Source of the DNA: an uncultured bacterium
GTDB taxonomy: Bacteria; Patescibacteriota; Minisyncoccia; UBA6257; 2-01-FULL-56-20
Direction of reading: 5' to 3'
DNA: 64,000 nucleotides
Assembly (NCBI GenBank): GCA_963844965.1
Contig: CAWJQC010000007.1
Span: 64,001-128,000, forward strand
The notes under the pieces are model-generated. The model was given only the letters and a program-made list of their open reading frames with translations. It made no database searches and was not told where the DNA came from. The position numbers and the translations under genes were made by a program. Of the stretch, positions 22,546 to 57,700 are shown piece after piece (the stretch's first letter is position 1; each line of letters begins with the position of its first letter).

Positions 22546-22644
22546 TTTTACATTTTGAGGGAGATGGAGCGGTTGGAAATATCTAAATGTAAAGGATAGG
22601 TTTCTTTAGACAGTGATTCGACGGCTTTTTGCCGTTTTTTTTCG

Positions 22645-23427: not shown

Positions 23428-23687
23428 TTCTTTTTTTGGGCCTGGGAGAGCTTCACGGTGAGCTCGCCCACCACTTCAAACAGCTCCCTGTTCTGCTTCT
23501 GGAGACGGCTGAACTCGCCCCAGGAAGGGACGCCCGATGCTCCTGCGCCTAGCCAATTGTAGATGGTGGACTCGTGCAAACCGTGGTCCTTCGCAGCCTG
23601 CGCTACGGGGACTCCTTCTTCCTTCACCCGGCGGAGGATGTCCGCCTTCACTTCCTTCGCAATCCGATGCCCTTTTTTGTTGCTCAT
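23424..23687 (-). CDS. IS3-family transposase OrfA (HTH)
   Basis: HTH segment VPVAQAAKDHGLHESTIYNWL. The ORF ends at an A AAA AAG slippery site that overlaps the start of orfB. Confidence 0.85.
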   Translation of the reverse strand: MSNKKGHRIAKEVKADILRRVKEEGVPVAQAAKDHGLHESTIYNWLGAGASGVPSWGEFSRLQKQNRELFEVVGELTVKLSQAQKKN

Positions 23688-23741
23688 GACACAATGGTAG
23701 TTTGTTTCGACCTTTGTGTCTAAATTATCCTATCCGGGTCA

Positions 23742-23773
23742 ACCTTTGTGTCTAAATTATCCTATCCGGGTCA
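23742..23773. repeat. 32-bp tandem duplication of the IS3 left terminal repeat
   Basis: CCTTTGTGTCTAAATTATCCTATCCGGGTCA occurs twice in tandem at 23711-23741 and 23743-23773. Confidence 0.8.
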
Positions 23774-23777
23774 AGTG

Positions 23778-23951
23778 ATGGTTGATTTAAGTAAGCTCTA
23801 TCCCGATATTGATATTGCCGAAACGCTCTCGAACCTAACGGGAAAATGGATCAAGACAATCAAGGGCAATAAGGTTGAATTTTCTGATGGTAGCGAGATA
23901 GATACAAGCGATATGGATTACAAACTTATTAAGCCATTGATTTGGTGGTAA
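23778..23951 (+). CDS. 57-aa ORF whose N-terminus resembles that of the downstream helicase (possible 5' duplicate fragment)
   Basis: MVDLSKLYPDIDIAETL...GKW versus MSKLYLQDIVEDIPFDDLPAKW in the next gene. It overlaps that gene's start by 10 nt. Confidence 0.35.
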   Translation: MVDLSKLYPDIDIAETLSNLTGKWIKTIKGNKVEFSDGSEIDTSDMDYKLIKPLIWW

Positions 23952-23953
23952 AT

Positions 23954-26650
23954 ATGTCGAAGTTGTATTTACAAGACATAGTTGAGGACATCCCGTTTGA
24001 TGATCTGCCCGCGAAATGGCAGGACTTTGACTTCGGCAGGTTTTCTTCCGATAAAACACTATTTGGCTTCCAGCAAAATGGCTTACGGAACGCTCTGAAA
24101 GCGCTCTGGCTTTTTTATAAAGATAGGAAGGGAAACAAAATAGAGCTTTATGAACAATATAAGGCAAATGGCTTGGGCGCGGATTTTGATTATGATTTGA
24201 CGCGAGAAAGAAAAGCCGCTGACCATCTTTTGGAATTTGATACGGATTATCCGAAAACAGACGGCAAAATTGCTTTTGCCCACTTCTTAAACCGCATGAG
24301 CTTTTGGATGGCTACGGGCTCTGGAAAGACGCTGATTATCGTAAAACTCATTGATATGCTCGGCGCTTTAATGAGGCAAAAAGAGATTCCTCAAAACGAT
24401 ATTCTGTTCTTGGCTCATAGGGACGACCTTTTGGAACAATTCAAAAATCATGTGGATCAATTCAATAGCTTCAATTTTGAAACAAGAATCAACTTCAAGA
24501 GCTTGAAAGATTATGAGAGCGTCAAGCGCGAGAACGCTCTGCCATTTGCAAAAAACGAGATAACGGTATTCTACTACCGCTCGGATTTAATATCAGACGA
24601 GCACAAAGAAAAAATTGTCAATTTCAAAAATTATGATAACGGCGGCAAGTGGTATGTTCTTCTCGATGAGGCGCACAAAGGCGATAGAGAGGACAGCAAA
24701 AGACAGATTCTATATTCAATCCTTTCAAGAAGCGGCTTTCTGTTCAATTTTTCCGCTACCTTTACCGATCCGCGGGATTACGCAACCTGTGCCTTTAATT
24801 TCAATCTTTCAAAATTCATTGAGGATGGTTACGGCAAGCATATTTATGTATCAAGCGCGGAAGTAACGGCTTTCCGCGATCAAGACGACTTCTCAAAAAT
24901 TACGAAGCAGAAAATCGTTTTGAAAACGCTGATACTGCTTACATATATCAATAAGTATTTTGAGAAGGTTCGGAAACAGGATAAAAAGCTGTATCATCGC
25001 CCACTCCTTCTTACTCTCGTCAATTCCGTTGATACGAAAGATGCGGACTTAAAGCTGTTCTTTTCCGAACTGGAAAAGATAGCCAAAAATGAAATAAGAG
25101 GCGACTTGATTGAAAAAGCCAAAGAGGAACTCATAAAAGAATTTGAAGAAAATCCGCAATATGAATTTGAGGGCATAAATGTAGAGATTGATAAGGCCTC
25201 GCTCAAAAAAATCTGCTATAAGGATATTTTGAAGCAGATTTTCAACGCAAAATCTTCTGGTAATATCGAGGTTTTGAAAATTCCGAATAACAGAAACGAA
25301 ATAATCTTTAAGCTGCAAACTTCTGAAAAACCATTCGGGCTGATTAAGATCGGGGATATTTCGGGATGGCTTAAGGAAACGCTTGAGGGTTATGAAATAA
25401 TCGAGAGCTTTGAGAATGAAAGCGTATTTAAGCGGATCAACCACGATGACTCCGAAATTAACATTCTGATGGGCTCCCGTGCCTTTTACGAGGGCTGGGA
25501 CTCAAACAGGCCGAACATTCTCTTATTCGTAAATATCGGCATCGGAAGCGACGCAAAGAAGTTTGTCCTGCAATCCGTTGGCCGAGGCGTAAGAATTGAA
25601 CCGCAAAAGAATAAACGGAAAAGAATTTTGGAATTGCACAACGCAAAAGAAATAAAGACAGAGCTATTTAATAAAATCCGAAGCAATATACAAGCGCTTG
25701 AGAGCTTGTTCGTATTCGGAACAAACGCCGATAATCTGAAGGAAATAATCAAGGCGCTGAAAGAAGAAAAACAAGAGCAAGATTTAGGTGCCGAATTTAT
25801 TATAAATAAAGATGCTGAAAAACGGCTGTTGCTTATACCTACTTACCGAGAATCGGAAAAGATATTTGCCGAAGAAAAAGAGCCGCAGAAATACGGAATC
25901 AGCCGAGAGGACTTGGCACTCGCAAAATCAATGTTCAGCTATCTTGGCGATAAAGTAACTCTGGCAAAATTTGAGTGTGAAGTAAGGGTTATTAAAAAGA
26001 CAGCCGAGAGTTTTGAAACAGCCGAGCAATACTTTGACCTTAACGAGGAGAGGTCAATTTCCGAGCCAGATTTGCTGGTTGATAGGATACTGGACTACTT
26101 CAGCGTCAGGGATAAAGAATTTGATAAATTCAAAAAACTGGAAAACGAGATCGTCCACTTCAAGCGGATAAGGTTTAATGACGGCGAGAAGTTTGAAGAA
26201 ATAAAACAGAAAATCGGCAAAATAAAGGAGTATCCAGAAAGACAGCGAGAACTGGATAAACAATACGGAAAAATATCGCGGGAAGAATTTGCGAGAAAGC
26301 AGGCGAGTTTGTTTGACGCGCAGACCTTTGAATACAAGAGCAAAAAGCTAAAAATCAAATATATCCAAAACCATTACTACATTCCTCTGATTATTTCAGA
26401 AAATGAAAAAGTTGATTATCTCAACCACATTATTGATGTTGAAAGCGAAGTCCGTTTCATAGAACAATTGGAAGAATACCTACAGCAGGACGACAATGTA
26501 TTCAAACAATTTGATTGGTGGATGTTCTCAAAGCTCGATCAAACGCTGGACGAAGTTCATGTGCCGTATTACAGCCCAAAAGAAAACAATATGGCAAGGT
26601 TTAAGCCCGACTTTATCTTCTGGCTGCAAAAGGTGACCCGGATAGGATAA
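23954..26650 (+). CDS. SF2 helicase / Type III restriction Res-like protein (DEAH box), C-terminally truncated by IS3 copy B
   Basis: Motif I MATGSGKT, motif II LLDEAHKG, and motif VI QSVGRGVR. The C-terminus ...FKPDFIFWLQK runs 17 nt into the IS terminal repeat and stops (KVTRIG*), as if the PD-(D/E)xK nuclease motif were cut off. Confidence 0.7.
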   Translation: MSKLYLQDIVEDIPFDDLPAKWQDFDFGRFSSDKTLFGFQQNGLRNALKALWLFYKDRKGNKIELYEQYKANGLGADFDYDLTRERKAADHLLEFDTDYPKTDGKIAFAHFLNRMSFWMATGSGKTLIIVKLIDMLGALMRQKEIPQNDILFLAHRDDLLEQFKNHVDQFNSFNFETRINFKSLKDYESVKRENALPFAKNEITVFYYRSDLISDEHKEKIVNFKNYDNGGKWYVLLDEAHKGDREDSKRQILYSILSRSGFLFNFSATFTDPRDYATCAFNFNLSKFIEDGYGKHIYVSSAEVTAFRDQDDFSKITKQKIVLKTLILLTYINKYFEKVRKQDKKLYHRPLLLTLVNSVDTKDADLKLFFSELEKIAKNEIRGDLIEKAKEELIKEFEENPQYEFEGINVEIDKASLKKICYKDILKQIFNAKSSGNIEVLKIPNNRNEIIFKLQTSEKPFGLIKIGDISGWLKETLEGYEIIESFENESVFKRINHDDSEINILMGSRAFYEGWDSNRPNILLFVNIGIGSDAKKFVLQSVGRGVRIEPQKNKRKRILELHNAKEIKTELFNKIRSNIQALESLFVFGTNADNLKEIIKALKEEKQEQDLGAEFIINKDAEKRLLLIPTYRESEKIFAEEKEPQKYGISREDLALAKSMFSYLGDKVTLAKFECEVRVIKKTAESFETAEQYFDLNEERSISEPDLLVDRILDYFSVRDKEFDKFKKLENEIVHFKRIRFNDGEKFEEIKQKIGKIKEYPERQRELDKQYGKISREEFARKQASLFDAQTFEYKSKKLKIKYIQNHYYIPLIISENEKVDYLNHIIDVESEVRFIEQLEEYLQQDDNVFKQFDWWMFSKLDQTLDEVHVPYYSPKENNMARFKPDFIFWLQKVTRIG

Positions 26651-26687
26651 TTTAGACACAAAGGTCGAAACAAACTACCATTGTGTC

Positions 26688-26951
26688 ATGAGCAACAAAA
26701 AAGGGCATCGGATTGCGAAGGAAGTGAAGGCGGACATCCTCCGCCGGGTGAAGGAAGAAGGAGTCCCCGTAGCGCAGGCTGCGAAGGACCACGGTTTGCA
26801 CGAGTCCACCATCTACAATTGGCTAGGCGCAGGAGCATCGGGCGTCCCTTCCTGGGGCGAGTTCAGCCGTCTCCAGAAGCAGAACAGGGAGCTGTTTGAA
26901 GTGGTGGGCGAGCTCACCGTGAAGCTCTCCCAGGCCCAAAAAAAGAATTGA
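26688..26951 (+). CDS. IS3-family transposase OrfA (HTH)
   Basis: Identical to the product of 23424-23687. Confidence 0.85.
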   Translation: MSNKKGHRIAKEVKADILRRVKEEGVPVAQAAKDHGLHESTIYNWLGAGASGVPSWGEFSRLQKQNRELFEVVGELTVKLSQAQKKN

Positions 26952-27730
26952 CGGAAAAGCGGAACAAGTCCGCCATGGCGCGGGCCATGGGCGTCTCGCG
27001 GGCATCGCTCTACTACGTATCACGGCAGGACAAGAAAGATTGGGCGCTCAAGATCCGCATGGAAGAAGAATTGCAGCGCCATCCGGCATACGGTTCCCGG
27101 CGCTTGGGACAAGCTCTGGGCGTGAGCCGTCCGCGAGCGCAGCGCGTCATGCGAATCTTCGGCATAAGGCCGTACCGGAGGCGAGGCAGGAAATACCGGA
27201 AATCAAAGGCATCGCGGGCCTTTCCGAACCTCTTACTTGCCATCATGCCCTCGTACGCGAACCACGTCTGGGCAACCGATTTCACGGAGTTCCTGTATCG
27301 CGGCAAGAAAGTGTACGTGTCCACGATACTCGATCTTTTCACGAGACGATTGATGGGCGTCCATGTGGCGTTGCGGAAAGGATCGCCCCTCACGATACAG
27401 ACCCTGGCCAACGCGCTTTTCCACCATCCGCATCCGGTCATCTTCCATTCGGACAACGGCAGCGAGTACAAGGCACGAGCGTTCACCGATACACTGGGGG
27501 ACTGTGGCATCACGATCTCGCGGTCGCGGCCCGGTGCCCCATGGGAAAACGGCTACCAGGAATCGTTCTATGACAAGTTCAAGATTGACCTCGGTGATCC
27601 CAACCGGTTCGGGACCTTCGGCGAGCTCGTGGCGGAGATCTACAGCACCTTGTGGCAGTACAACCACACGCGGATCCACTCCGCCCTCAAGATGCCGCCG
27701 TCCGTGTTTGCCGAGAAGATTGCGGCTTAA
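26948..27730 (+). CDS. IS3-family transposase OrfB (DDE)
   Basis: Identical to the product of 22645-23427. Probably expressed as an OrfAB fusion through a -1 frameshift. Confidence 0.9.
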   Translation: MTEKRNKSAMARAMGVSRASLYYVSRQDKKDWALKIRMEEELQRHPAYGSRRLGQALGVSRPRAQRVMRIFGIRPYRRRGRKYRKSKASRAFPNLLLAIMPSYANHVWATDFTEFLYRGKKVYVSTILDLFTRRLMGVHVALRKGSPLTIQTLANALFHHPHPVIFHSDNGSEYKARAFTDTLGDCGITISRSRPGAPWENGYQESFYDKFKIDLGDPNRFGTFGELVAEIYSTLWQYNHTRIHSALKMPPSVFAEKIAA

Positions 27731-27861
27731 CGAAAAAAAACGGCAAAAAGCCGTCGAATCACTGTCTAAAGAAACCTATCCTTTACATCGGGCAAAAAGT
27801 TAGAGTTTACAATGCGAAAACCGTTTGATGCGGTCCTCGAATTGGCTACTTGTCCAACTGG

Positions 27862-27933
27862 GCTCCGGCGCCTGGATTCGAACCAGGAACCTTCTCCTTA
27901 ACAGGGAGCCGCTCTACCGTTGAGCTACGCCGG
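27862..27933 (-). tRNA. tRNA-Asn (GTT anticodon)
   Basis: Cloverleaf with acceptor TCCGGCG/CGCCGGA, D-arm GCTC-AACGGTA-GAGC, anticodon loop CTGTTAA, and T-arm CCTGG-TTCGAAT-CCAGG. The first base is U1, as in E. coli tRNA-Asn. CCA is not encoded. Confidence 0.8.
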
Positions 27934-28087
27934 AATCCTTATTCTTATTAATGTATCAAAAAAACAGATTTTTTTCAATCTCGCCAGCCGCAATGCTGCG
28001 AGATCATACTTTAATGTTGAAAAAAAAGAAAAAAGCCGAGTGGTTGGAAAAGTTAGGAAAGGCGGCGTAAAAATTAAAACGTCCCGG

Positions 28088-38775: not shown

Positions 38776-39795
38776 ATGACCGAGTTGAAAAATCGGACTT
38801 TATATTTCGGCGACAATCTGGAAATCCTACGCGAGAAAATTCCCGACGAGAGTTTTGATTTGATTTACCTTGACCCGCCGTTCAATTCCAACCGTGCCTA
38901 CAATGTAATTTATAAGGAAGGGTTGCAGGACAGCCCGGCACAAATTAAGGCCTTTGAGGATTCTTGGCATTGGACGCCGGAGGCGCAGGCAACTTTTGAG
39001 GAACTTGTCGGCATGCGGCAATCAAGGACGAAAATCAACGCTGACATTGTCAATTTGATGCAGGCGATGGAAAAACTCGTGGGACACAATGATATGCTTG
39101 CGTACCTTACAATGATGACAGTTCGGCTCATTGAACTGCGGCGCGTTTTGAAGTCAACCGGCAGTATTTATCTGCATTGCGACCCGACCGCAAGCCATTA
39201 TTTGAAAATCGTGATGGACACGATTTTCGGAAAACAGAATTTCCAAAACGAAATTATTTGGTGTTATGAAATCGGAGCTAGAAGTAAAACACACTGGGGG
39301 AGTAAACACGATGTAATTCTCTTTTATACAAAATCAGGAAACTTTATCTTTAACACAAGGGCCGTTGCTGTGCCACGGAAAGAAGGGACACACATGAAAA
39401 CCGCAGTAGACGAAGAAGGAAGAGAATATCAAGAAAAGAAGGATGCAAAAAGTGGTAAGGTCTATAGATATTATCTTGATGAAGGCGCCATCCCTCCCGA
39501 TTGGTGGGTGGGAATTCAGCAATTAAATCGTGAAGCACAAGAAAGATTGCATTATCCCACCCAAAAACCCGAAGCGCTTCTGGAAAGAATTATTAAGGCA
39601 TCGTCTAACGGACCTCCGCCAAGTCCTTCGCTGATTGCGACAGAGACAGAGGAGGTGGAGGAGAATAGAGGCGATTGGGTTCTTGACCCGTTTTGCGGTT
39701 GCGGCACGACGGTTGCCGTCGCCGAGCGGCTGAAAAGAAACTGGGTCGGCATTGACCCGCTCCGCCGCAAGCCCCGGCCTTTAGGCCGAGGATAA
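38776..39795 (+). pseudogene. N4/N6 DNA methyltransferase (beta class) whose 3' end is interrupted by an IS200/IS605 element
   Basis: DPPFN motif IV near the N-terminus and DPFCGCGTT motif I near the C-terminus. The reading frame runs into IS sequence after ...NWVGID. Confidence 0.8.
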
Positions 39796-40320
39796 GGCGA
39801 CCCCGTAGCCCCGAGCGAAGCGAGGGGCGGAGGGCTTATTTGCCTGTTCCCACTGGTTTCTGCCGGTGCGATAATGAAGATAATGCCCTCTGGATTCTGG
39901 CCAAGCAACCACAGCTATACGCGATGTTTGTACCACGTTGTTTTCTGCCCAAAGTACCGCCGCTCGATACTGCGAGGGGACATGGTCGGGCGACTCAAGA
40001 CATTGTTCTTTCAAGCCGCCAAGATGAATAAATGGTTCATCCATGAAGCGCAGATAATGCCCGACCATGTCCATCTATTGCTTCAAATTCCTGCTACCCT
40101 GACGGTTGCCAAAGCGGTGTTTTATCTCAAAGGCGGTACGTCCAGGGCTGTCAGAAAAGAATTTCCCGAGCTGGAAGAATTCCTCTGGGGAGACAGCTTG
40201 TGGCAGGATGGTTACTTTGCCGAAACCGTTGGCCGTCAAAACGAAAAAGCGATGAGAGAATATATCAGAAACCAGTGGGAACAGGAGCCGAACACAAGCC
40301 GCGGGCTTTAGCCCGCGGTG
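39757..40320 (+). mobile_element. IS200/IS605-family element (tnpA only)
   Basis: Y1 HuH transposase ORF and subterminal hairpins (CCGCGGGC-TTTA-GCCCGCGG at 40297-40317). A 20-bp inverted repeat CCTGTTCCCACTGGTTTCTG occurs at 39844-39863 and 40266-40285. An ATTGAC hexamer abuts both ends. Confidence 0.75.
39874..40311 (+). CDS. tnpA: IS200/IS605 TnpA (Y1 HuH transposase)
   Basis: YHVVFCPKYRR ... MPDHVHLLLQIP (HuH motif) ... YIRNQ C-terminus. Confidence 0.9.
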   Translation: MKIMPSGFWPSNHSYTRCLYHVVFCPKYRRSILRGDMVGRLKTLFFQAAKMNKWFIHEAQIMPDHVHLLLQIPATLTVAKAVFYLKGGTSRAVRKEFPELEEFLWGDSLWQDGYFAETVGRQNEKAMREYIRNQWEQEPNTSRGL

Positions 40321-40935
40321 ATTGACATTACGATGCTTGCCATCAATTTAATAAAACACCGGCTGATAGACGGCTTGGGAGTGGGACGGAACGAAATATG
40401 CACCGACGGTATTCCAAAGGACTTGAGCGGAGCGGAGGAACTGGCCAAAAAGGACAGATTTGCCTTTGAGTATTGGGTTTTGGATTTGGTGAACGCCGTT
40501 CCGGCGCAAAGCAAGACGAAAGAAAATATGCGCGGCGCGGACAAGGGGATTGACGGCATAATTACCATCGTAAAGTCGGTCAAGGACAATAAAAAAGAGC
40601 TTGGGAAAATTTTGGTTCAGGTGAAAAGCGGCGGCGTCCATCGCGACGACGTAGCCACGCTTAAGAGCGACGTTGAACGGGAAAAGGCCGTCGGCGGCGT
40701 TTTCATCACGCTGGAAAAGCCGACTCAGCCGATGAGAACGGAGGCGGTTGAGGCGGGAACGTTCAGGGTTGACTACTCCCAGGAAAATTTGCCGAAAATT
40801 CAGATTATAACGGTTGAGGACTTGTTGAGCGGCAAGAAACTGGACCTGCCTCCGGCCGTGGCGCTTCAGGAAACCTACTATAAGGAAGCAAAACCTGCGA
40901 AACCCGAAAACAGGGCAAAAAAATTGGGAATATAG
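40318..40935 (+). pseudogene. Mrr-like PD-(D/E)xK restriction endonuclease domain, separated from the methyltransferase by the IS200 insertion (likely the C-terminal part of one fusion protein)
   Basis: FAFEYWVLDLV...GADKGIDGII...ILVQVKSG is the Mrr_cat pattern. The frame is open from the IS end with no ATG (GTG only). Joining ...NWVGID to ITMLAINLIKHRL... gives a typical methyltransferase C-terminal helix. Confidence 0.65.
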
Positions 40936-40941
40936 AATTTT

Positions 40942-41595
40942 ATGAATTTGGATGAATTTAAACTGCAGAATTTGGGCATTGACAAAGAAAAATTCGGAAA
41001 AATTCTCAGCTTTGTAGACTTCGGCAACGTTAATTATTGGTATGAGAAAGACCGGCGCGACTGGGAGGACAACACCATTAAGCCGAATCAAAGATTAATA
41101 ATTGATATCGCAAAACTCGCTCAATTTTTGAATCTTTTCTCTGATCAAAAGCGCTTTTACTACGGATGGCACAAGCGCATGAAGAGATCTTGGCATATTT
41201 TGGTATTGGCGGAGAGAAATGGATTTGTTAAAATTACCAAACCAATACAATTCATAAAGCATTATCTTGAAGAGTTAGAGTTGGCGAGCGCAAACGGGAG
41301 GCTTGTTAAAGAAGACTTGATGGGCAGGTATATTGAAATTCCAAAAAGCAATTTTGATGTAGAGATAAGCGTTGATTCAATTCGTTTGCTGGACAAATAC
41401 AATACATTTTGCTTGCTTTCCGGCGATAGCGATTTTACTTATTTAAACCGATTTTTAAAAAGAAGGGGGAAGAAAATTATTGTTATTGCTGCAGGTCAAA
41501 TACTTCATTCCCTAAAAGAAACCGCGGACTTATATATAAACGCGCAGACAATTAAGGGAAGCATTGCCGCCGTAAAAGAAACCTCGCCCGGTTAA
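40942..41595 (+). CDS. NYN-domain (LabA-like, PIN fold) protein
   Basis: FVDFGNVNYW, DVEISVD and LLSGDSDF acidic motifs. Confidence 0.7.
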   Translation: MNLDEFKLQNLGIDKEKFGKILSFVDFGNVNYWYEKDRRDWEDNTIKPNQRLIIDIAKLAQFLNLFSDQKRFYYGWHKRMKRSWHILVLAERNGFVKITKPIQFIKHYLEELELASANGRLVKEDLMGRYIEIPKSNFDVEISVDSIRLLDKYNTFCLLSGDSDFTYLNRFLKRRGKKIIVIAAGQILHSLKETADLYINAQTIKGSIAAVKETSPG

Positions 41596-41724
41596 GGGCG
41601 AGGTTTGGATATCGGATCCGTCTCCGACGGACAGGGTAGCTTGAGGCTACAAAGTAAGCATAGCATGGGCAATTATTAAAAGTCAATGAACTGTGGATAA
41701 TTAAAGGAGTAATCAAAATACAAC

Positions 41725-42507
41725 ATGTCCCAATATTACAAGCCGAAACGCGGCAGGAATTTATACAATCCGGCGAATCCGGAGCCGTTCGTCGTCAGCC
41801 GTTCCGGCATTGACCTATATATAGAGTGCCCGCGGTGTTTTTATCTGGACAGGCGTCTTGGCACCGCTAGGCCGCCGGGTTTTCCTTTCAGTTTGAACAC
41901 GGCGGTTGATGCTTTGCTCAAAAAAGAATTTGACATCCACCGCGCCGCGAACACGCAGCATCCCTTGATGAAAAAATATGGCATTGACGCCGTGCCCTAT
42001 GCGCACGAAAAGCTGGAAGAGTGGCGCGATTCCCGCCTTCGGGGCATAAAATTTTTCCACGAGCCGACGAATCTCACGATAAAAGGCGGCATTGACGACG
42101 TCTGGGTAAATCCGAAAGGAGAATTGCATATCGTGGATTACAAAGCTACCTCAAAAACATCGGAAGTTAACATTGACGCCGAGTGGCAGAGCGGATACAA
42201 GCGGCAGATGGAAGTTTACCAGTGGCTTTTCCGCAAGAACGGCTTTGATGTTTCCGACATCGGCTATTTCGTTTACTGCAACGGCGACACGGACAAAAAA
42301 GCGTTTGACGCCAAGCTGGAATTTAACGTCAAGGTGATTCCCTACAAAGGAAACGACGGCTGGGTGGAGGAAACGATTCGCGAGGTAAAAAGCTGCCTTG
42401 ATTTTGATGAACTTCCCGCGGCGAACGACAGCTGCGACTGGTGTGCCTACTTCGGCGCGAGAGAACGGCTGGAGAAAGGAAACAGCGACTTTATTGAGAG
42501 CGCGTGA
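41725..42507 (+). CDS. PD-(D/E)xK nuclease with a four-Cys cluster (Cas4/RecB-like)
   Basis: GIDDVWVNPKGELHIVDYKATSK core; N-terminal CPRC and C-terminal CDWC. Confidence 0.65.
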   Translation: MSQYYKPKRGRNLYNPANPEPFVVSRSGIDLYIECPRCFYLDRRLGTARPPGFPFSLNTAVDALLKKEFDIHRAANTQHPLMKKYGIDAVPYAHEKLEEWRDSRLRGIKFFHEPTNLTIKGGIDDVWVNPKGELHIVDYKATSKTSEVNIDAEWQSGYKRQMEVYQWLFRKNGFDVSDIGYFVYCNGDTDKKAFDAKLEFNVKVIPYKGNDGWVEETIREVKSCLDFDELPAANDSCDWCAYFGARERLEKGNSDFIESA

Positions 42508-48673: not shown

Positions 48674-49420
48674 ATGAAAATAAGGAACATCGGCGCGGGG
48701 AAGGCAACAGTCCTCGTGGGCGTTCTCAAGCGCAAGCGGGATTTGGACATATTTCTCAAAGAACATTGGTATAGGATCCCGCTTCTTAAAGTGCCCAAGC
48801 GGAAGTTTCGTTATTTGGCGCTGTACGAACCGGCGCGCTTTGGACGGCGAAGCAAGTGCATCAGATATTACGCCCGCGTCGCGCGGTGCCTTGTGGAGAA
48901 GCGGCGCGAACTGCTGCCGGACGAAAGGGAGCATCCGAACGCCGAAGAGAGGTATCTGAGGATTCGCGTCGGCAGGGTCACGCGGTTGCCGCGGCCAATT
49001 CGGAACGTGCCGCCGCGCCGCCTGTCTTTCGGTTTCGCCGACCTTGACCGGCTGCTTGCCGTGAAGACCATTTTACAGCTTTACCACGTCGCTCCGACCG
49101 AGGAGATCGTCGGCGCGGCGCTCAAGCGTTCTCACATCCGCGCCATTCCCCAGTGCCATGTTTCGTGCGCCGGGAAACATTACTGTTTGGATTTCGCGGT
49201 CCATTGCGAACGCGGCTCAATTGCCGTTGAGTGCGACAATAAGAAAGCGCATGCCGGCGCCCGCCAGCAAGCGTACGATAGCGCCAAAGACACTTTTCTT
49301 TTTAATCATGGCTGGACGGTCATCCGGCTGAAGGAGGAAGCGATACTCTCCGATGTCCAATCCTGTGTTTTGCGGATACGGCGCGCCATAAAAAACTTCG
49401 GTGGAATGGCCTGTCGGTAG
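48674..49420 (+). CDS. DUF559-type (Vsr-like) endonuclease-domain protein, GC-rich and probably foreign
   Basis: C-terminal DFAVHCERGSIAVECDNKKAH...D..R...L...GWTVIRL pattern of DUF559. Arg-rich and visibly higher GC than neighbouring genes. Confidence 0.55.
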   Translation: MKIRNIGAGKATVLVGVLKRKRDLDIFLKEHWYRIPLLKVPKRKFRYLALYEPARFGRRSKCIRYYARVARCLVEKRRELLPDEREHPNAEERYLRIRVGRVTRLPRPIRNVPPRRLSFGFADLDRLLAVKTILQLYHVAPTEEIVGAALKRSHIRAIPQCHVSCAGKHYCLDFAVHCERGSIAVECDNKKAHAGARQQAYDSAKDTFLFNHGWTVIRLKEEAILSDVQSCVLRIRRAIKNFGGMACR

Positions 49421-51100: not shown

Positions 51101-51130
51101 CTGGAAAAATTCGCGAAAAAGTGGGACAAT
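51101..51130 (+). promoter_or_regulatory. 30-bp motif CTGGAAAAATTCGCGAAAAAGTGGGACAAT immediately upstream of the RhuM-Fic gene (copy 1)
   Basis: 29 of 30 nt identical to the motif at 52340-52369. Contains the palindromic core TTCGCGAA. Confidence 0.6.
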
Positions 51131-51141
51131 AAGACAAAACC

Positions 51142-52107
51142 ATGAAAAAGAAGGCGATAAAAAATGAAATTGTAATATATCAGGCCAAAAACGGAGCGAT
51201 AGAATTTCGTAAGGACTTGCGCGCAGAAACGATTTGGGCAACGCAGGCGCAGATCGTTAAACTTTTTGATATTGATCAGTCAGTAGCTTCGCGGCACATA
51301 AGCAATATCTTCAAGGACGGCGAGGTTGACAAAAAAAGCAATATGCAAAAAATGCATATTGCAAATTCGGACAAACCAGTTGTTCTTTATTCACTCGATA
51401 TGATTTTAGCAGTCGGATATAGGACGAACTCGGGACGGGCGATAACTTTCCGCCAGTGGGCAACCAAGACCTTGCGGGCGCATATTATAGATAGCTATAC
51501 CATCAACCGTGCTCGCATTGCCCAGAATTACGAAGTTTTTCTGAAAGCGGTGGAAGATGTAAAAAAACTTCTTCCAACGGGCGGAGCAGTGGATATTGTC
51601 AATGTATTGGAATTGATCAAGACATTCGCGAGTACCTGGGTATCGCTGGATGCCTACGACAAATCCGCTCTGCCAAAGAGCGGCGCTACAAAAAAACAGG
51701 TTAAACTGACGGCGCAGGATTTCTCGGCCGCGCTCCTTGAACTTAGGCGGGAATTAACGGCCAAAAAAGAAGCCAGTGAACTTTTCGCGGTTGAACACCA
51801 GAAAGGAAACGTGACCGGTATAGTCGGCAACGTACTCCAATCCTTCGGCGGCAAAGACCTCTATCCAAGTGTTGAAGAAAAAGCGGCCCACCTTTTGTAT
51901 TTTATGGTTAAGAATCATCCGTTCACTGACGGCAACAAACGAGCAGGCGCATTTTCGTTCGTATGGTTTTTGAGAAAAGCCGGATTGCTGAATACCGCGC
52001 GCCTTACTCCCGAAGCCTTGACGGCGCTCACTCTGCTCGTTGCGGAAAGCAGTCCGAAAGACAAAGAGCGGGTAGTCGGATTGGCTCTTCTGCTTTTAAA
52101 AAAGTAG
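51142..52107 (+). CDS. RhuM-family N-terminal domain fused to a Fic/Doc domain
   Basis: N-terminal IVIYQAKNGAIEFRKD...WATQAQIVKLFD (RhuM-like). C-terminal HPFTDGNKRAG (Fic/Doc motif HxFx(D/E)GNKR). Confidence 0.7.
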   Translation: MKKKAIKNEIVIYQAKNGAIEFRKDLRAETIWATQAQIVKLFDIDQSVASRHISNIFKDGEVDKKSNMQKMHIANSDKPVVLYSLDMILAVGYRTNSGRAITFRQWATKTLRAHIIDSYTINRARIAQNYEVFLKAVEDVKKLLPTGGAVDIVNVLELIKTFASTWVSLDAYDKSALPKSGATKKQVKLTAQDFSAALLELRRELTAKKEASELFAVEHQKGNVTGIVGNVLQSFGGKDLYPSVEEKAAHLLYFMVKNHPFTDGNKRAGAFSFVWFLRKAGLLNTARLTPEALTALTLLVAESSPKDKERVVGLALLLLKK

Positions 52108-52339
52108 TTGCGACGAACCATCGAACAGTCCCACCCGTGCTCATCGGGGTTTAGTATTGGGGTGCGAAGCAGGGTGGTGAATGCGGCCTTTTTATATCCG
52201 GAGGATACCGCGTTCTACTGCTCTGGCCCGGCTAGGTTAATTGCCCCGACCTTGCGTCGGGGCTACTACCCATGAGCCCCATGGTGAAATTGCGACCAAA
52301 AATCGTGGCCGTAGGCCTTCGCAATTTCTACTATCGGGG

Positions 52340-52369
52340 CTGGAAAAATTCGCGAAAAAGTGGGAGAAT
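52340..52369 (+). promoter_or_regulatory. 30-bp motif CTGGAAAAATTCGCGAAAAAGTGGGAGAAT immediately upstream of the restriction endonuclease gene (copy 2)
   Basis: See copy 1. It ends 6 nt before the ATG at 52376. Confidence 0.6.
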
Positions 52370-52375
52370 GGGGAT

Positions 52376-53062
52376 ATGTCACAAGAGCAAATTAGGAAAA
52401 AAAATGGAGGCGCGGCAATCAAGGCTTTAGTCTCGGCAGGAGAAGAGATTTTGTCTAATTTGCAGCGAGTTATTGCTGTTGGCGGTTTCGATTATCGCAC
52501 TTTTGGTACGGCCATCGAGAAACACCTTAGCAATATTATTGTCAAAATTTTTAAAGAGAGAGGTTTTATTAGAAATAATCGGGATTACATTGTTGCACCA
52601 CATAAAAATTATTTTCCTGATTTTGAGTTAAAAACTGCGCCGCCCATTGCGATAGAGTTTAAATCCGGCAATAAAAGTCAGAACAGAAAGGGCAAATGGG
52701 TTACCGTTAAAAACAGCGAGAACGATATGGGCACGTTGAACGAGTGGCCCAAAAAGATTAAAAGATTTGGGGGAGAAAATATATACTATGTTTTTGTAAT
52801 CTATAATTTTAATAAAAAAACGAAACAGATCTTGAGTATAGAAATAGCCCCATTTTATAAATTTTTAGGACTTAGCAAGGGAAGCGTTCTTAAATATAGA
52901 GAAAAAGACGGAAATTTGCGGCCAAAAAATTTCGACGCCGAACCGCCGATAAAAAACCTGAGTCAGTTTGAGCAGTTATTTAATAAAACTATAATTTACA
53001 GATCAAAACGAATAATCAAAAAACACAAGCTAATTATTAAAAAAGCATCCTCGGGTTCTTGA
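52376..53062 (+). CDS. PD-(D/E)xK Type II restriction endonuclease candidate
   Basis: FPDFELKTAPPIAIEFKSG fits the PD...ExK pattern. Convergent with the methyltransferase and overlaps its 3' end by 26 bp. The start was chosen at the Met directly downstream of the conserved motif. Confidence 0.55.
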   Translation: MSQEQIRKKNGGAAIKALVSAGEEILSNLQRVIAVGGFDYRTFGTAIEKHLSNIIVKIFKERGFIRNNRDYIVAPHKNYFPDFELKTAPPIAIEFKSGNKSQNRKGKWVTVKNSENDMGTLNEWPKKIKRFGGENIYYVFVIYNFNKKTKQILSIEIAPFYKFLGLSKGSVLKYREKDGNLRPKNFDAEPPIKNLSQFEQLFNKTIIYRSKRIIKKHKLIIKKASSGS

Positions 53063-54617
53063 CGTTCACAGGGCTAGCTTTTTTATTAATTTGTTTTCTG
53101 GCAATAGCGAATGCGGGGTTATCTATCGGATAGATTCCTTCATCTTCGGATATCGTTAAATTTCTCAGATATTTTGATGCAACTTCTGGGGTATCGCCAT
53201 TGTATTTATAGCCGTTACTTGATCTATAATTAACTTTTTTGAGCTTGTCCGCAACAATTTTTTTATATTTTGGATCTATGTCAATACCGATATAGTTTCG
53301 GCCGAGTCGCTTTGCGGCCAATGCGGTTGTTCCTGCCCCAACGAAAGGATCTAGTACCACGTCGCCCTCGTCCGTCGTCATCAGAATCAAGCGTTCAAGT
53401 AGCGGCTCCGGAAGTTGGCACGGATGGGCGTCTCTGCGCGCATTATGTCTTATGCGGTGAATATCGGCCCAAACATCGCTTAGAAGTGTTCCGTGCGGGT
53501 GTATCTGACTTTTCTTTCCTCCGTAATCTTTGATCATTTTGCCACAACTCCGGCATTTCTTATGTGGCGCCCTAAGTTCGTGGAATTTAAATCCTTTGGG
53601 AAGTTTTGTATAGAATAGTATTCCGTAGTGTGCGGGTAATAAGGTTTTGCCTAAAGGCGTACTCATTGAATCCCACGCGATCCAGTGTTTAAAGACCGCA
53701 ATCTTATTGAGATGATTAGCATAATAAATTAACCACTTTGGTATATTGTGGACCAAAATAGAGCCCGTTGGTTTAGTTATTCTAACCATCTCGGTTAGCC
53801 ATTGCTCACACCACTTTATATAATCTTCCGCCGCTTTTTTGTCTTTATAGCTGCCGTATTTCTTATTTAGGTTAAATGGAGGGTCCGCGAAGGTCATATC
53901 AATTGAGTCGGCGGGAAGTTTTCTCATTTCCTCAATCGAATCTCCGCATAAAATTTCGTTGAGCGGTATCTTTTTGTATTGCTTATATTCTGTTTTTGTT
54001 TCCGGAAAGGTGACAGTAGAGGGAGTTTCTTCGCTGATAACATCGAGTACTATTCCTTGTATGGAAATATCCCGGCCATTTCGAAAGATTAGAGGCTCCA
54101 TGTTTTTGTTCGCCGGTTGTAAACGGATTCGGCCCCGTTCTTTATAGAATTTTTTAAGCGTTGCTTCGTGATTATCTATAAGTGCCACCACCTTTTGTCC
54201 ATTTTCGGCAACGCCCTGTTGTTTAACCAAGACGAGATCGCCATTGTTTATATTTTCGTCAACCATACTGTTTCCGACCACGCGTAGAGCGAAGAATTCT
54301 CCGGAGCGGGGAAGTTTGCTTTGCGGAACGGCAATGGTTTCTTTTTCCTCAACAGCTTCAATCGGCTGGCCGGCAGCTATGATGCCTAACAGGGGGATGC
54401 TAACCATTTTTTCCGATTCAGAAATTTGAATGCCGCGTCGCTTGTTCTCTTCTATTCGCAGGTGGCCGCCTTCCTGGAGCTTCTGAAGGTGTTCATGAAT
54501 GGTTCCGACTGCTCGCTTAAAATGTTTAGCTGTCTCCGGGATAGAAGGAGAGTAGCCATGTTTTTTTGAGTACGTTTTAAAAAAATCCAGAACCTCCTTT
54601 TGTTTTTTAGTGATCAT
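53037..54617 (-). CDS. LexA-like repressor (HTH plus S24 peptidase domain) fused to an N4/N6 DNA methyltransferase
   Basis: N-terminal ~200 aa: KQKEVLDFFK...HL, IPLLGIIAAGQPIEA, GNSMVDENINNGDLVLV and ATLKKF, the Ser/Lys dyad context of LexA. C-terminal ~320 aa: DPPFN, VLDPFVGAGTT and GIDIDPKY methyltransferase motifs. Confidence 0.75.
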   Translation of the reverse strand: MITKKQKEVLDFFKTYSKKHGYSPSIPETAKHFKRAVGTIHEHLQKLQEGGHLRIEENKRRGIQISESEKMVSIPLLGIIAAGQPIEAVEEKETIAVPQSKLPRSGEFFALRVVGNSMVDENINNGDLVLVKQQGVAENGQKVVALIDNHEATLKKFYKERGRIRLQPANKNMEPLIFRNGRDISIQGIVLDVISEETPSTVTFPETKTEYKQYKKIPLNEILCGDSIEEMRKLPADSIDMTFADPPFNLNKKYGSYKDKKAAEDYIKWCEQWLTEMVRITKPTGSILVHNIPKWLIYYANHLNKIAVFKHWIAWDSMSTPLGKTLLPAHYGILFYTKLPKGFKFHELRAPHKKCRSCGKMIKDYGGKKSQIHPHGTLLSDVWADIHRIRHNARRDAHPCQLPEPLLERLILMTTDEGDVVLDPFVGAGTTALAAKRLGRNYIGIDIDPKYKKIVADKLKKVNYRSSNGYKYNGDTPEVASKYLRNLTISEDEGIYPIDNPAFAIARKQINKKASPVNVKNPRMLF

Positions 54618-54798
54618 ATTTCCATTATATCATACCGACCCGAAAGAAAACCGAAAGTTATCCACAGGTTGGTTTTCGTTGATACGCGCGCTTGACGCCG
54701 CTCGTGTCGTTTGCTACCTTGTAGCGAATAGTAAATAGCCCATAACTCAATAACGAGTTCTGCCGCACTGGAGTAGCTTGCGGCGGAACATTTAATAT

Positions 54799-57700
54799 AT
54801 GCGAATAGCAAATAAGCTATCCGCGCACCAATCCCGCCTGGCGGGATGGTGCGGGATTTCGCTCCGCGGATCTACTCATTTGATAAAGCAAATGCGCGTT
54901 GGAAGCCGCGGAGCTCAACTTTTTGTTGTGTTGATTTTCTGTTTTGTTTTCCTGCCGTATCCCGGTGTCGTTTCGGCTTACGATAATTTGACGACACATC
55001 CGGCGCTCACGCAGGAGGTTGTTGATTTCTACAACAACGGCGGAAATTCCATAACGGCGGAGGAAAAAGAATGGATTATACAAGGGAGCGTTGAGGAAGA
55101 CACGCCGCCGAGGTGGCTGAACCATTTTTACGACCCGATAAGCGGGCAGGGTTGGACCGGCGAAAACACGGGAGAGTTGCCGTCAAGCTTTGTCTTGGAA
55201 TTTTCCGACCTATTTCTCGCGCCGGCAGACCCCGTCTCCGCCGTGCATTGGGTGAATGACGAGCTCACGCAATTGGAATACGGCCGCTATGGCGGCGACT
55301 GGACATGGAAACGCGGGCTCAGATATTTTGCCGACGGCGACAAGAAAGACGCCTATATTGCTTTGGGCCACACCCTGCATCTTTTGGAAGATATGGCCGT
55401 GCCGGAGCACACGAGGAACGATACGCACGTTGACCTGGGCGGCGTGGCGGGCGAATACGGTTCGCCGTACGAGGAATACGCGACCAAGTGGACGCGTACG
55501 ACGATTGGCGATTTGCACATTGTGGACGCGCTTCGCGCCGAGAACGCGACACCGCCCGCGAAAACATCAATTGAGGATTATTTGATTTCCGTCGCGCAAT
55601 ATTCCAATAAATATTTTTTCTCCAAGGATACGATTAACTCGGCGAAGTATTCTCTGCCGAAAATCGTCCGAGATGACGGGAATTTCGGATATGGAATTGA
55701 TGAAAATGAAACAGAGTTTCCGTTGGTAAAAGTTCATCAAACGAAAGATGCGAACAACAATATCCTTACGGGATATTCTATTGAGAACCTTCAAGATTAT
55801 CACCCTGTCCTTGATGCCTACTTTTCTCATCTCGCCCGGCAGGCGGTTCTGAACGGAGCGGGCGCGATAGCTTTATTCCAAAAGCAGGCGCAGGACGCCG
55901 TCGTCAACAAAGATTTCCAGTTCCAGACGGTGAACGAGGACGTGGTGAAGCCCGTCGTCTCCGGATTCTCTCTTTATGGTGAATTTGTGCAGGCGGCGAA
56001 TACGGTTGGAAGTTTCATCGGCAACGCTTTCTCCACGGTCGGCGGCTGGTTCGGCAGCGGCGGCGCGTTGATTGCCGACGCGTTCGGGACGATTACCGGC
56101 CCGAACGAGATAACGATTGTCCCTGAATTAACGACGTCGGACATCGTTAATTCGGGGAATAATGCAACATCAGGACATCCGACGTCCGAGAATTGCGTTA
56201 ATGTTGGGGACGTCGGATGTCCAAGCATTGGCGCGACAAATTCTACACAACATTCCAACATTCTTGAGAATGTTGGAATGTTGTCGTCCACCGTTGTCGG
56301 AGATGTTCCGGCTCAATCGTCGTCGCAGGAAGAACTCGCGGCCGCGCTTGGCAGGTTGGTTGAATTACTGCGGGGTCGGTTTGCGGCGAGTGTCGCGCCG
56401 ACATCCACCCAAATTGCGCCGGTTGCCGGCGGCGGTTCGGCGCTGCTTACCGCAAGCGGCGGCGGAAATTCTCCGGGCGGCGTGAGCATCGTGCTCGCGG
56501 ACGCGGGAGGAGCGTCAACGGCCGGATCGCAAACGGATTCAACGAGTTCCTCGCAGACGGATTCCACAAATTCCGCGAGTTCAACCGATTCACAGCAAGC
56601 CGGTTCCGGGCAGGCCTCCTCAACCGATTCGGGTCAAGCAACTTCAACCGATTCCTCCCAGCAAAATTCCAGCTCGGGAGAGACCACTTCCACCGGTTCA
56701 GGGATTGCCGTTTTGCTGGCCGACGTTCCCTCATCCATGTTTGCCCAGCGCGTTGATTCCACGGTATCAATTGGAAGCGATTACTCCGACAGCTGGTACG
56801 AGTTGGGAACTGGATTTTCCGGAACAATACACTCGCTCACGTTCTACGGATACGCCGATATCATCAGGCCGGATTTCGCCTCGCACATTTGGCTTGATGA
56901 GTTTAACGACCCGGGTTACGCAAGTTCCAGCAACCACTGGGTGATTTCCGATAACGCGCCGTTCGGCACGAGCGCCGGTTATGTCACGATTGGCGGCTTG
57001 AACATCACACTCTCGCCCGATAAATATTATCGCCTGGACACCTATCAGAGCGAGCAGAACAGAAATGTTTATCTCCTGGGCACGAGTTCCACGGGCACGG
57101 CGATGCGCAACTGGTTTTCCTATGGCACGGGGCGCGTGGAAGAACTTTATACTTTTTATCCGTACATCGTGGCGGATAAGCCGGTTCTAAATATTTCTTC
57201 ACTCGCGCAATATCAGCCGGACGGAACGACGGCGATCGGCGAAGGAGACGAGATAAGCGGGGACGCGGTTGCTCTCGGCGCGGTGCCGCAGTCATCGCCG
57301 GAGGGTCACCTGCAGCTGGAGGCACAAATGTTCACGACCGTGTCGCAGGGCGCGTGGTTCTCAAATCCTGTCGTTGACGCAGCCGGTTCTTTTGTTGCGT
57401 CCGGCGGCACGGCGACAGTTGCCGTAAAATTGCCGCGGAACGGATTTTACCATTGGCGCGCGAGGGCCGTGAATATTTGGGGCGACACTTCGGATTGGCT
57501 GGAGTTCGGAACACCGGGCAACACGGACTTCACGGCGCTTCACGTTTATCCAACACCGCCTCCGAGCCAGACGGTTTTTGATGCTTCTACAACATTGCCG
57601 ATGTCCGTCGGCTGCGAGAACGTGACAGGGGACGGGAGCGTGATAAGCAACGTCCGGGTTAAATACAAAACTGCAGATGCCGGCAACAATCCGCGTTTCA

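Follow-up and report, generated by a model that had tools for sequence, protein, structure and literature searches.

The DNA considered here is a 64,000-nucleotide stretch (hereafter the window) of contig CAWJQC010000007.1 from an uncultured member of the Patescibacteriota, in which two convergent genes occupy positions 52376-54617. One encodes a candidate restriction endonuclease (R), and the other a 526-residue protein in which a LexA-family repressor is joined to a beta-class amino-methyltransferase (M). On balance, we favor the reading that this pair is a mobile type IIP restriction-modification (R-M) module of Patescibacteria whose controller is the LexA-family repressor carried on the modification enzyme itself. 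The features on which this argument draws are as follows.

52376-53062, plus strand: type IIP restriction endonuclease candidate, 228 amino acids (aa), with an EcoRV/SwaI-like PD-(D/E)XK fold.
52619-52621, 52655-52657 and 52661-52663, plus strand: endonuclease catalytic residues D82, E94 and K96, respectively.
53037-53062, assigned to neither strand: 26-bp tail-to-tail coding overlap, leaving no room for an intergenic terminator.
53037-54617, minus strand: fusion gene (the M gene of the module), 526 aa, a single open reading frame (ORF) with an ATG start and three Pfam domains.
54432-54614, minus strand: LexA winged helix-turn-helix (HTH) DNA-binding domain, aa 2-62 (PF01726), with the recognition helix around TIHEHLQKL.
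54048-54395, minus strand: S24 autopeptidase and dimerization domain, aa 75-190 (PF00717, 97.8 bits).
54369-54374, 54267-54269 and 54153-54155, minus strand: within the S24 domain, the Ala82-Gly83 cleavage site, Ser117 and Lys155, respectively.
53955-54029, minus strand: variable, probably flexible linker, aa 197-221, with poorly conserved alignment columns and a predicted local distance difference test score (pLDDT) of 29-32.
53253-53903, minus strand: beta-class N6/N4 amino-methyltransferase domain, aa 239-455 (PF01555, 175.8 bits).
53874-53885 and 53325-53351, minus strand: motif IV (DPPF) and motif I (DPFVGAGTT) of the methyltransferase domain.
54624-54632, minus strand: extended -10 element TGATATAAT of the fusion promoter, its last T lying 6 nt before the ATG.
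54640-54656, minus strand: putative operator TTTCGGTTTTCTTTCGG (TTTC-N7-TTTC, 11-bp period), over the -35 and spacer.
54657-54667, minus strand: CTGTGGATAAC, matching the DnaA-box consensus (TTATCCACA) perfectly and adjoining the operator on its upstream side.
52340-52368, plus strand: CTGGAAAAATTCGCGAAAAAGTGGGAGAAT, promoter-like and preceding the endonuclease gene; its minus strand contains a weak TTTC-N7-TTTC.

By all sequence criteria, the N-terminal half of the fusion belongs to the LexA family. Pfam matches LexA_DNA_bind to aa 2-62 (40.2 bits against a cut-off of 23.7), Peptidase_S24 to aa 75-190 and N6_N4_Mtase to aa 239-455 of the one ORF, and the lexA equivalog model TIGR00498 of NCBIfam covers aa 2-194 with 171.5 bits (cut-off 110.95). 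The autopeptidase motifs are present as GNSM (Ser117), ATLKKF (Lys155) and the cleavage site IAA^GQP (Ala82-Gly83), and the closest relative of the first 193 residues in the PDB is the Thermotoga LexA 3k2z (E 4e-33); in a full-length AlphaFold model, the LexA part is confident, with pLDDT values of 79-89 in the winged helix. For the remainder of the protein, the nearest PDB structures are the beta-class methyltransferases 8urk/9c3u, M.MboIIA, CcrM and M.RsrI. Its motif IV (DPPF, aa 245-248) stands ahead of motif I (DPFVGAGTT, aa 423-431, with FxGxG at aa 425-429), which is the beta-class order, and a conserved C-terminal tail extends past the domain to 53037. PADLOC assigns the enzyme to class MTase_II, and the Asp of motif IV presumably points to N6-adenine methylation. 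Because one PADLOC type II methyltransferase profile reaches into the S24 region (fusion residues 118-463), LexA-methyltransferase fusions probably sit already, uncommented, among the sequences from which such profiles were built. An earlier note, written from the letters of the window, had described a single ORF with a complete LexA (winged HTH and S24 autopeptidase, with Ser in GNSM and Lys in ATLKKF) joined to an N4/N6 methyltransferase, and the Pfam and TIGR00498 matches together with the motif order bear this description out.

The architecture is not peculiar to one assembly. An identical 526-aa ORF with the same overlapping neighbor is found in a contig of an independent Logan assembly (L001), and the join between the two parts, where the note had thought of a stop or frameshift, contains neither. 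A search of 5.8 billion proteins yielded more than 100 clusters, drawn from NCBI, JGI, ENA and Logan, that share the uninterrupted three-domain architecture at 63-80% identity and 93-100% coverage, which answers the note's call for homologous fusions; all named carriers are Patescibacteria (Tagabacteria, Parcubacteria and others), and the NCBI label on the homologs is 'transcriptional repressor LexA'. An assembly or annotation artefact, that is, a chimeric lexA-methyltransferase join, would have the oddity of the architecture in its favor, as well as a Falkowbacteria contig (L007, CAVVFV010000007.1) in which an in-frame stop at about 2520-2620 separates the LexA and methyltransferase parts; given the identical independent ORF and the clusters, we regard its probability as negligible. 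The L007 stop itself may be natural, dividing the gene in two, or else reflect a pseudogene or a sequencing error. When the protein clusters were pooled with translations from fetched loci, 125 distinct full-length fusions were obtained, and in every one of them the Ala-Gly site is kept, as are the catalytic residues, Ser in GxSM and Lys in TLKK; homologs lacking the catalytic Ser or Lys, which the note had envisaged, do not occur in this set. In the alignment of fusion homologs, the LexA half is nevertheless far less conserved than the methyltransferase half.

The partner enzyme was identified through fold comparison alone. Its 228-aa product, read from the ATG at 52376 where its homologs begin too, has no sequence match in Pfam, NCBIfam, PADLOC or the PDB (phmmer), and every one of its 276 relatives is annotated 'hypothetical'. 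The fold resembles those of the blunt-cutting type IIP enzymes SwaI, EcoRV, NlaIV and HincII, and P81-D82, E94 and K96 are invariant in the family alignment. In standing as a gene of its own next to M, and in its nuclease fold and catalytic residues, the endonuclease is as expected of a type II system. The convergent PD-(D/E)xK endonuclease with a 26-bp overlap that had been proposed from the letters alone is thereby located exactly, and its fold can now be specified as type IIP. As a side observation on the methyltransferase lineage, stand-alone enzymes of ~320-330 aa that are 60-69% identical to the fusion's methyltransferase domain occur in many phyla (loci L012-L081, including Chloroflexota, Poribacteria, Nitrospirota and some archaea), and in 54 of 70 such loci the methyltransferase is preceded by a co-oriented 312-aa gene whose product resembles DpnII marginally (25.1 bits, cut-off 23). 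Because of this partner, the same methyltransferase lineage appears, as judged from sequence likeness, to pair with a different endonuclease family outside Patescibacteria. A GATC specificity for the module was considered and is unsupported, the likeness of that partner to DpnII being only marginal.

The two genes travel together. An endonuclease homolog is convergent with and adjacent to the fusion gene in all 10 fusion loci from species-representative genomes, the 3' ends overlap by 4-35 bp in 50 of 53 distinct modules, and the 80 loci from a metagenome scan, for which the endonuclease was the query, have a convergent methyltransferase wherever the DNA suffices, the LexA part being present in almost all. 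Across the loci of at least 6 kb, M and R are the only genes common to 45 of 45; the flanks are unrelated, and a large serine recombinase lies nearby in nine. Because M and R alone are shared by all 45, gene content identifies the pair as a mobile module, and in the window it stands at the end of a stretch rich in defense and mobile genes, with G+C dipping to 0.42 over 52-54 kb. A 69-78-aa XRE HTH gene is found directly upstream of R in 11-16 related loci (73 aa in 11 of the 45 longer loci), and no such controller (C) gene precedes the endonuclease of the window, there being no such ORF in 52108-52375. As an aside, XRE HTH genes of 73-78 aa ahead of the endonuclease (L009, L010, L094, L098, L101, L105 and L107) have conserved palindromic upstream elements of their own, ATCCCATTTTGGGAT...ACAATAGGATAT or, in a second group, GACAATTTGGAATAT...ACAATGGAATAT; the elements of both groups resemble the C-boxes of controller proteins.

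The promoter of the fusion gene is compact. Just six bases separate the -10 element from the ATG, for which reason the mRNA is probably leaderless, and a generic promoter scan misses the promoter because its -35 is poor. Of 39 unique upstream regions of fusion genes, about 10 have a TATAAT at -12, and a direct repeat of the form [GT]TTC-N7-[GT]TTC is present in all 39 (35 in the orientation of transcription, 4 inverted; background 1.9%), where it covers the -35 position or abuts the -10. Its format and spacing equal those of the LexA box of Alphaproteobacteria, for which GTTC-N7-GTTC is the established format (PMC8565304). The search for a LexA-type box in 54618-54800 that the earlier note had recommended was rewarded: the window form of the repeat, TTTCGG-N5-TTTCGG at 54640-54656, belongs to a set conserved across loci and occurs once in the 64 kb. 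In its strict form, TTCGG-N6-TTCGG, the repeat has 41 matches in 703 kb of module loci against 1 in 732 kb of control loci, and all but about four of the 41 are at the fusion promoter, one of the four being upstream of an unfused lexA-like gene. The half-site varies with the recognition helix: H-[Q/E]-H accompanies TTCGG, H-[F/Y]-H accompanies TTTC(T/G)AT and H-H-H accompanies GTTCTAT, whereas the adjoining TGTGGATAAC element is invariant. Such a combination would be expected if the repeat is the target of the variable winged helix, and the TGTGGATAAC element that of a conserved host protein. As a further observation on these promoters, GTCAA is found no more than 20 nt before the ATG in 12 of the 39 upstream regions (background 2%; for example L120, L125, L126, L130 and L142, and also L165-L167) and pairs with the -35 region as a 7-8-nt inverted repeat, GTTGACAC ... 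GTGTCAAC or TTGACTTT ... AAAGTCAA, which may act as a second operator or mark an antisense promoter in face-to-face orientation.

The distribution of this repeat bears on whether the fusion might instead be the general SOS repressor of its host, governing recA, uvr and polymerase genes, with the methyltransferase as an SOS-linked epigenetic enzyme. The protein does score above the lexA equivalog cut-off, its homologs are named LexA by NCBI, the window contains no other lexA, and a stand-alone LexA relative uses a similar direct repeat. Yet the gene is always paired with the same endonuclease in otherwise unrelated neighborhoods, its carriers number at least about 10 among the 80 best-matching loci of 185,579 species-representative genomes, and the LexA domains of the fusions group apart from most 200-aa LexAs in a rough tree. 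The repeat, moreover, is found solely at the gene's own promoter in the window, and the strict operator is essentially confined to that promoter in the 703 kb of related loci, the DNA covered being devoid of SOS genes. We consider a general SOS repressor improbable.

Directly upstream of the operator lies the invariant element. A perfect DnaA-box 9-mer (TGTGGATAA/TTATCCACA) is present in 37 of the 39 upstream regions (background 0.7% per 120 nt), and the copy in CTGTGGATAAC contains the sole perfect DnaA-box 10-mer of the window. The same box also precedes unfused lexA-like genes, as well as genes in which LexA is fused to a C5 or gamma methyltransferase. With its flanks, the element equals the strongest boxes of E. 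coli oriC, R1 and R4. That it serves as a DnaA site just upstream of the -35 is, among our inferences, the least secure. Two other roles were considered for the motif. As a methyltransferase target it was rejected, being asymmetric and recurring with C5 and gamma methyltransferase fusions; as a LexA operator it is disfavored, the motif being invariant while the recognition helix varies.

The endonuclease gene has an upstream region of another kind. An exact 26-bp repeat, extending to about 29 bp with one mismatch and reading CTGGAAAAATTCGCGAAAAAGTGGGA(C/G)AAT, is present at 51101-51129 and 52340-52368 (two copies, none expected), directly upstream of a Fic/DOC-RhuM gene (exact copy 51101-51126) and of the endonuclease gene. 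The earlier note had suggested this shared 30-bp motif as a place for a LexA box; a weak TTTC-N7-TTTC is indeed present on its minus strand, but such a repeat precedes the endonuclease in just 2 of 57 loci and is not conserved. With no counterpart upstream of the endonuclease elsewhere, we treat it as a local promoter duplication and not as a LexA box, and its assignment to a LexA circuit is weak. The duplicated promoter implies a co-regulation of the Fic/DOC-RhuM and endonuclease genes that is limited to this genome. The 268-nt gap separating the Fic and endonuclease genes also contains a perfect inverted repeat of 10 bp with a 23-nt spacer, GAAATTGCGA (52286-52295) and TCGCAATTTC (52319-52328).

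The association of LexA with R-M extends beyond this fusion. In distant modules, whose endonucleases are 48-55% identical, a separate lexA-like gene of 202-219 aa lies directly upstream of, and co-oriented with, a methyltransferase gene of 582-592 aa; the endonuclease is again convergent in these unfused lexA-M-R modules, and the DnaA box and 11-bp-period repeat precede lexA in 3 of 4. An HMMER search with fusion residues 1-205 against 1.84 billion representatives, of which the best 150 matches were considered, returned 45 proteins of at least 331 aa with an N-terminal LexA part, all of them having both LexA_DNA_bind and Peptidase_S24. A DNA methyltransferase domain is present in 43 of these 45 (N6_N4_Mtase in 30, Eco57I/N6_Mtase in 7, two of them with TaqI_C, D12/Dam-like in 4 and C5 DNA_methylase in 2), so that at least 45 clusters at 50% identity carry the LexA module, with fusions to beta, gamma, Dam-like and C5 methyltransferases. 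In four of four fetched contexts the fusion is followed by a convergent, usually overlapping gene; one (L167) combines a LexA-Eco57I-type methyltransferase with an AccI-family endonuclease, ahead of which stands an XRE HTH gene. Their promoters have an 11-bp-period TTTC-type repeat between -35 and -10, with a DnaA box in 2 of 4. In a rough neighbor-joining tree, which has no support values and is not phylogeny-corrected, the fusion LexA domains form a grouping distinct from that of most 200-aa LexAs, and the methyltransferase classes are intermingled. Because it is fused to several methyltransferase classes with similar promoter boxes, the LexA module, together with its promoter, behaves like a regulatory cassette that is portable between methyltransferases. 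One further observation hints at an association of unfused LexAs of the same lineage with R-M genes: in each of two assemblies (L170/L171), the gene for a stand-alone 204-aa LexA relative (P0292) lies ~3 kb from one for a HinfI-family endonuclease.

These wider comparisons also inform the question of whether the LexA part is ever cleaved. It could be a DNA-binding and dimerization scaffold that never undergoes cleavage in vivo, the module then being a plain SsoII-type autoregulated R-M system with no damage input. Fusions of a winged HTH to a methyltransferase that lack S24 do exist, retain the 11-bp-period repeat and share the promoter architecture, and some LexA homologs of other phyla are described as unresponsive to DNA damage (PMC4759255). 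Set against this are the Ala-Gly site, Ser and Lys, present in 125 of 125 fusions at 63-80% identity and invariant in the alignment of the 45 fusions to unrelated methyltransferase classes. Selection for cleavage is likely, since such universal conservation of site and dyad is hard to explain otherwise, and we give the scaffold little credence.

We therefore return to the favored reading, a self-cleaving LexA-family controller, and set out how it might work. The fusion would dimerize through S24, bind the direct repeat with its two winged helices and repress its own transcription; repressor concentration would then equal methyltransferase concentration, and modification activity would be held at a set point. 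That dimerization, repeat binding and autorepression clamp the methyltransferase level in this way is the part of the scheme we consider likely. In a naive cell with no repressor, the probably leaderless M transcript would be made at full rate, so that modification could precede restriction, and because the genes overlap tail to tail this transcript would run into the R gene and collide with its transcription. Upon DNA damage, RecA filaments on single-stranded DNA would stimulate cleavage at Ala82-Gly83 by Ser117/Lys155, releasing the winged helix and derepressing the promoter; more methyltransferase would then be available while repair and recombination create unmethylated sites, which would be modified before the endonuclease finds them. 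Such a step would amount to a type II, transcriptional counterpart of restriction alleviation. For damage-triggered cleavage acting in this direction, we would put the case for and against at close to equal, leaning slightly to the latter. Host DnaA might in addition tune the fusion promoter, which is the weakest step and one that we hold to be doubtful.

Cleavage could also have the reverse consequence. In a suicide or abortive-infection switch, RecA-stimulated cleavage would destabilize or inactivate the methyltransferase, modification would lapse, and the endonuclease would kill the damaged or phage-infected cell. The strict conservation of cleavage site and dyad fits such a switch too, as does the position of a mobile module in a region resembling a defense island (with a Fic/DOC PDC-S23 gene, an Mrr-like nuclease, an NYN protein and other nucleases). 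The cleavage fragments of E. coli LexA undergo proteolysis. R-M systems are known to kill upon loss of modification (PMC2993543). Against this alternative, cleavage would remove just the 82-aa winged helix, with S24 and methyltransferase remaining joined, and the variants with only a winged HTH make plain that a LexA part is not required by the methyltransferase. Cleavage would also derepress the operator-covered promoter, raising synthesis, and degradation of the fragment in these organisms is pure assumption. An abortive-infection outcome is thus less favored than a boost in modification, and we rate it as unlikely, if less so than the scaffold or the general SOS repressor.

Several points nonetheless weigh against the self-cleaving controller as proposed. 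Repeat binding, autorepression, cleavage and damage induction are all predictions from sequence, and the cleaved S24-methyltransferase fragment, if degraded, would yield the opposite outcome, namely self-restriction. The S24-less variants (clusters P0113/P0115/P0116; loci L115/L116) show that cleavage is dispensable for R-M function itself. The window contains no second lexA, no recA and no other SOS gene, and host RecA is thus assumed. The link between helix and half-site, which was counted without phylogenetic correction, could partly reflect clade-wise co-inheritance of promoter and gene, and host LexA could bind the repeat instead of the fusion, the stand-alone LexA relative having a comparable TTTCACC repeat in its promoter. 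In the full-length structural model, the methyltransferase part failed (pLDDT <50). Finally, palindrome avoidance reveals no recognition site for the endonuclease: no 6-mer is outstanding in 701 kb of module-bearing DNA, where GATATC is mildly depleted at best (observed/expected 0.74, z -4.1).

Should the scheme hold, its reach could be wider than one module. We tentatively suggest, while thinking it rather less than an even prospect, that the DnaA box, 11-bp-period operator and self-cleaving LexA together constitute a general class of R-M controller in Patescibacteria, repeatedly joined to all major methyltransferase classes and wiring modification to two host signals, SOS (by way of RecA-stimulated cleavage) and the initiation of replication (by way of DnaA). 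If so, the cassette would give type II systems built-in restriction alleviation, and where it has box types in common with the SOS regulon of the host, the two might influence each other. For LexA biology, a lineage would have taken on a role outside the SOS regulon, either in place of its SOS duties or alongside them, and the conserved DnaA box at the promoter of a mobile element poses a separate puzzle. The predicted operator and the correspondence of recognition helix and half-site are directly testable, and although Patescibacteria are mostly uncultured, so compact a promoter-operator-repressor unit could be studied in a heterologous host.

The surroundings of the module contain further mobile and defense-related genes. 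A cluster at 38776-42507 comprises a further N6_N4 methyltransferase (38776-39795; 28% identity with the methyltransferase part of the fusion), an IS200 Y1 transposase (39874-40311), an Mrr_cat/NA-iREase1 nuclease (40318-40935), an NYN domain protein (40942-41595) and a PDDEXK_1 nuclease (41725-42507). Closer to the module are an REase_MTES_1575/DUF559 nuclease (48674-49420) and the Fic/DOC-RhuM gene (51142-52107), which is a PADLOC PDC-S23 match. Rfam has no match in 49-56 kb, and no tRNA adjoins the module. TCGA is strongly avoided across the window (70 observed against 252 expected, a ratio of 0.28), and because of this avoidance a TaqI-like (TCGA) restriction system, unrelated to the module, is suggested to be active in the organism now or to have been so formerly. 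Farther away, a segment of 2878 nt lies between the arms of a perfect 1162-nt inverted repeat (22587-23748 and 26627-27788, 100% complementary); an rve-family transposase is encoded in either arm, the segment holds most of a gene for a 902-aa ResIII/SNF2-type helicase (23942-26650), and tRNA-Asn (27859-27935) lies just past the right arm. The structure at 22587-27788 looks like a composite transposon or an invertible segment. A P-type cation ATPase appears to be split into two overlapping ORFs, 16691-17881 (E1-E2_ATPase and the N-terminus) and 17862-19208 (Hydrolase and Cation_ATPase_C), which represents a frameshift, a pseudogene or a sequencing error.

Restriction systems must be kept from killing their own host, and the known controls are C proteins, small HTH domains on methyltransferases, antisense RNAs and, in type I systems, restriction alleviation by proteolysis. 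In C-protein systems such as PvuII, AhdI and Esp1396I, a dedicated factor times and balances M against R, often from leaderless promoters. There, an XRE gene lies directly upstream of R, a layout also seen in the 11-16 related loci and L167. The window, in contrast, has no C gene, and its M-side regulator would be of the LexA family, not XRE, and is covalently part of the enzyme. Further parallels are M.SsoII, M.Ecl18kI and M.EcoRII, which likewise have an N-terminal DNA-binding domain on the methyltransferase and an operator, here a predicted one, in their own promoter, with feedback tying repressor level to methyltransferase level; for M.SsoII/M.Ecl18kI, the N-terminal region is a proven autoregulator of its own R-M system (PMC3978073, PMC2760811). 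In that type, however, the domain is a simple HTH of just ~70 residues, the enzyme bearing it is a C5 methyltransferase, and R and M diverge from one shared regulatory region, whereas the fusion has a complete LexA (winged HTH and self-cleaving S24) in a convergent, overlapping module whose R gene has a separate upstream region with no box, an 11-bp-period direct-repeat operator and a built-in, predicted damage-sensing cleavage step.

Self-cleaving repressors of the S24 family, among them lambda CI and SetR of integrative and conjugative elements (ICE), let mobile elements sense the host SOS state. These repressors are stand-alone and control lysis or transfer genes; in the fusion, the controlled gene is that of the repressor-enzyme itself, within an R-M system. 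With LexA, including that of Alphaproteobacteria (PMC8565304), the fusion shares domain architecture, the Ala-Gly site, the Ser/Lys dyad and box spacing, but it has ~330 additional methyltransferase residues and travels with an endonuclease on a mobile module, and while LexA governs the SOS regulon, the sole predicted target of the fusion in the window and the 703 kb is its own promoter. The earlier note knew of no LexA fused to a modification enzyme. Neither such fusions nor LexA-controlled R-M were found in the literature, although an earlier mention is possible in the 2017 study of the Patescibacteria SOS network (Sanchez-Osuna et al.), and the word LexA is absent from a comprehensive 2025 review of R-M biology (270,000 characters); the fusion is nonetheless no singular case, the family being widespread and labeled LexA by NCBI.

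In proposed purpose, the module recalls type I restriction alleviation, in which ClpXP degrades HsdR after DNA damage (PMC4231737, PMC11109961): both would avoid self-restriction at unmodified sites arising from repair and recombination, the type I systems by proteolysis of the restriction subunit and the fusion, hypothetically, by transcriptional derepression of the modification enzyme. Control of R-M by a repressor borne on the methyltransferase is known, and what is new is that the putative enzyme-borne repressor is of the self-cleaving LexA type; a complete LexA in the role of controller would add a direct DNA-damage input to type II systems.

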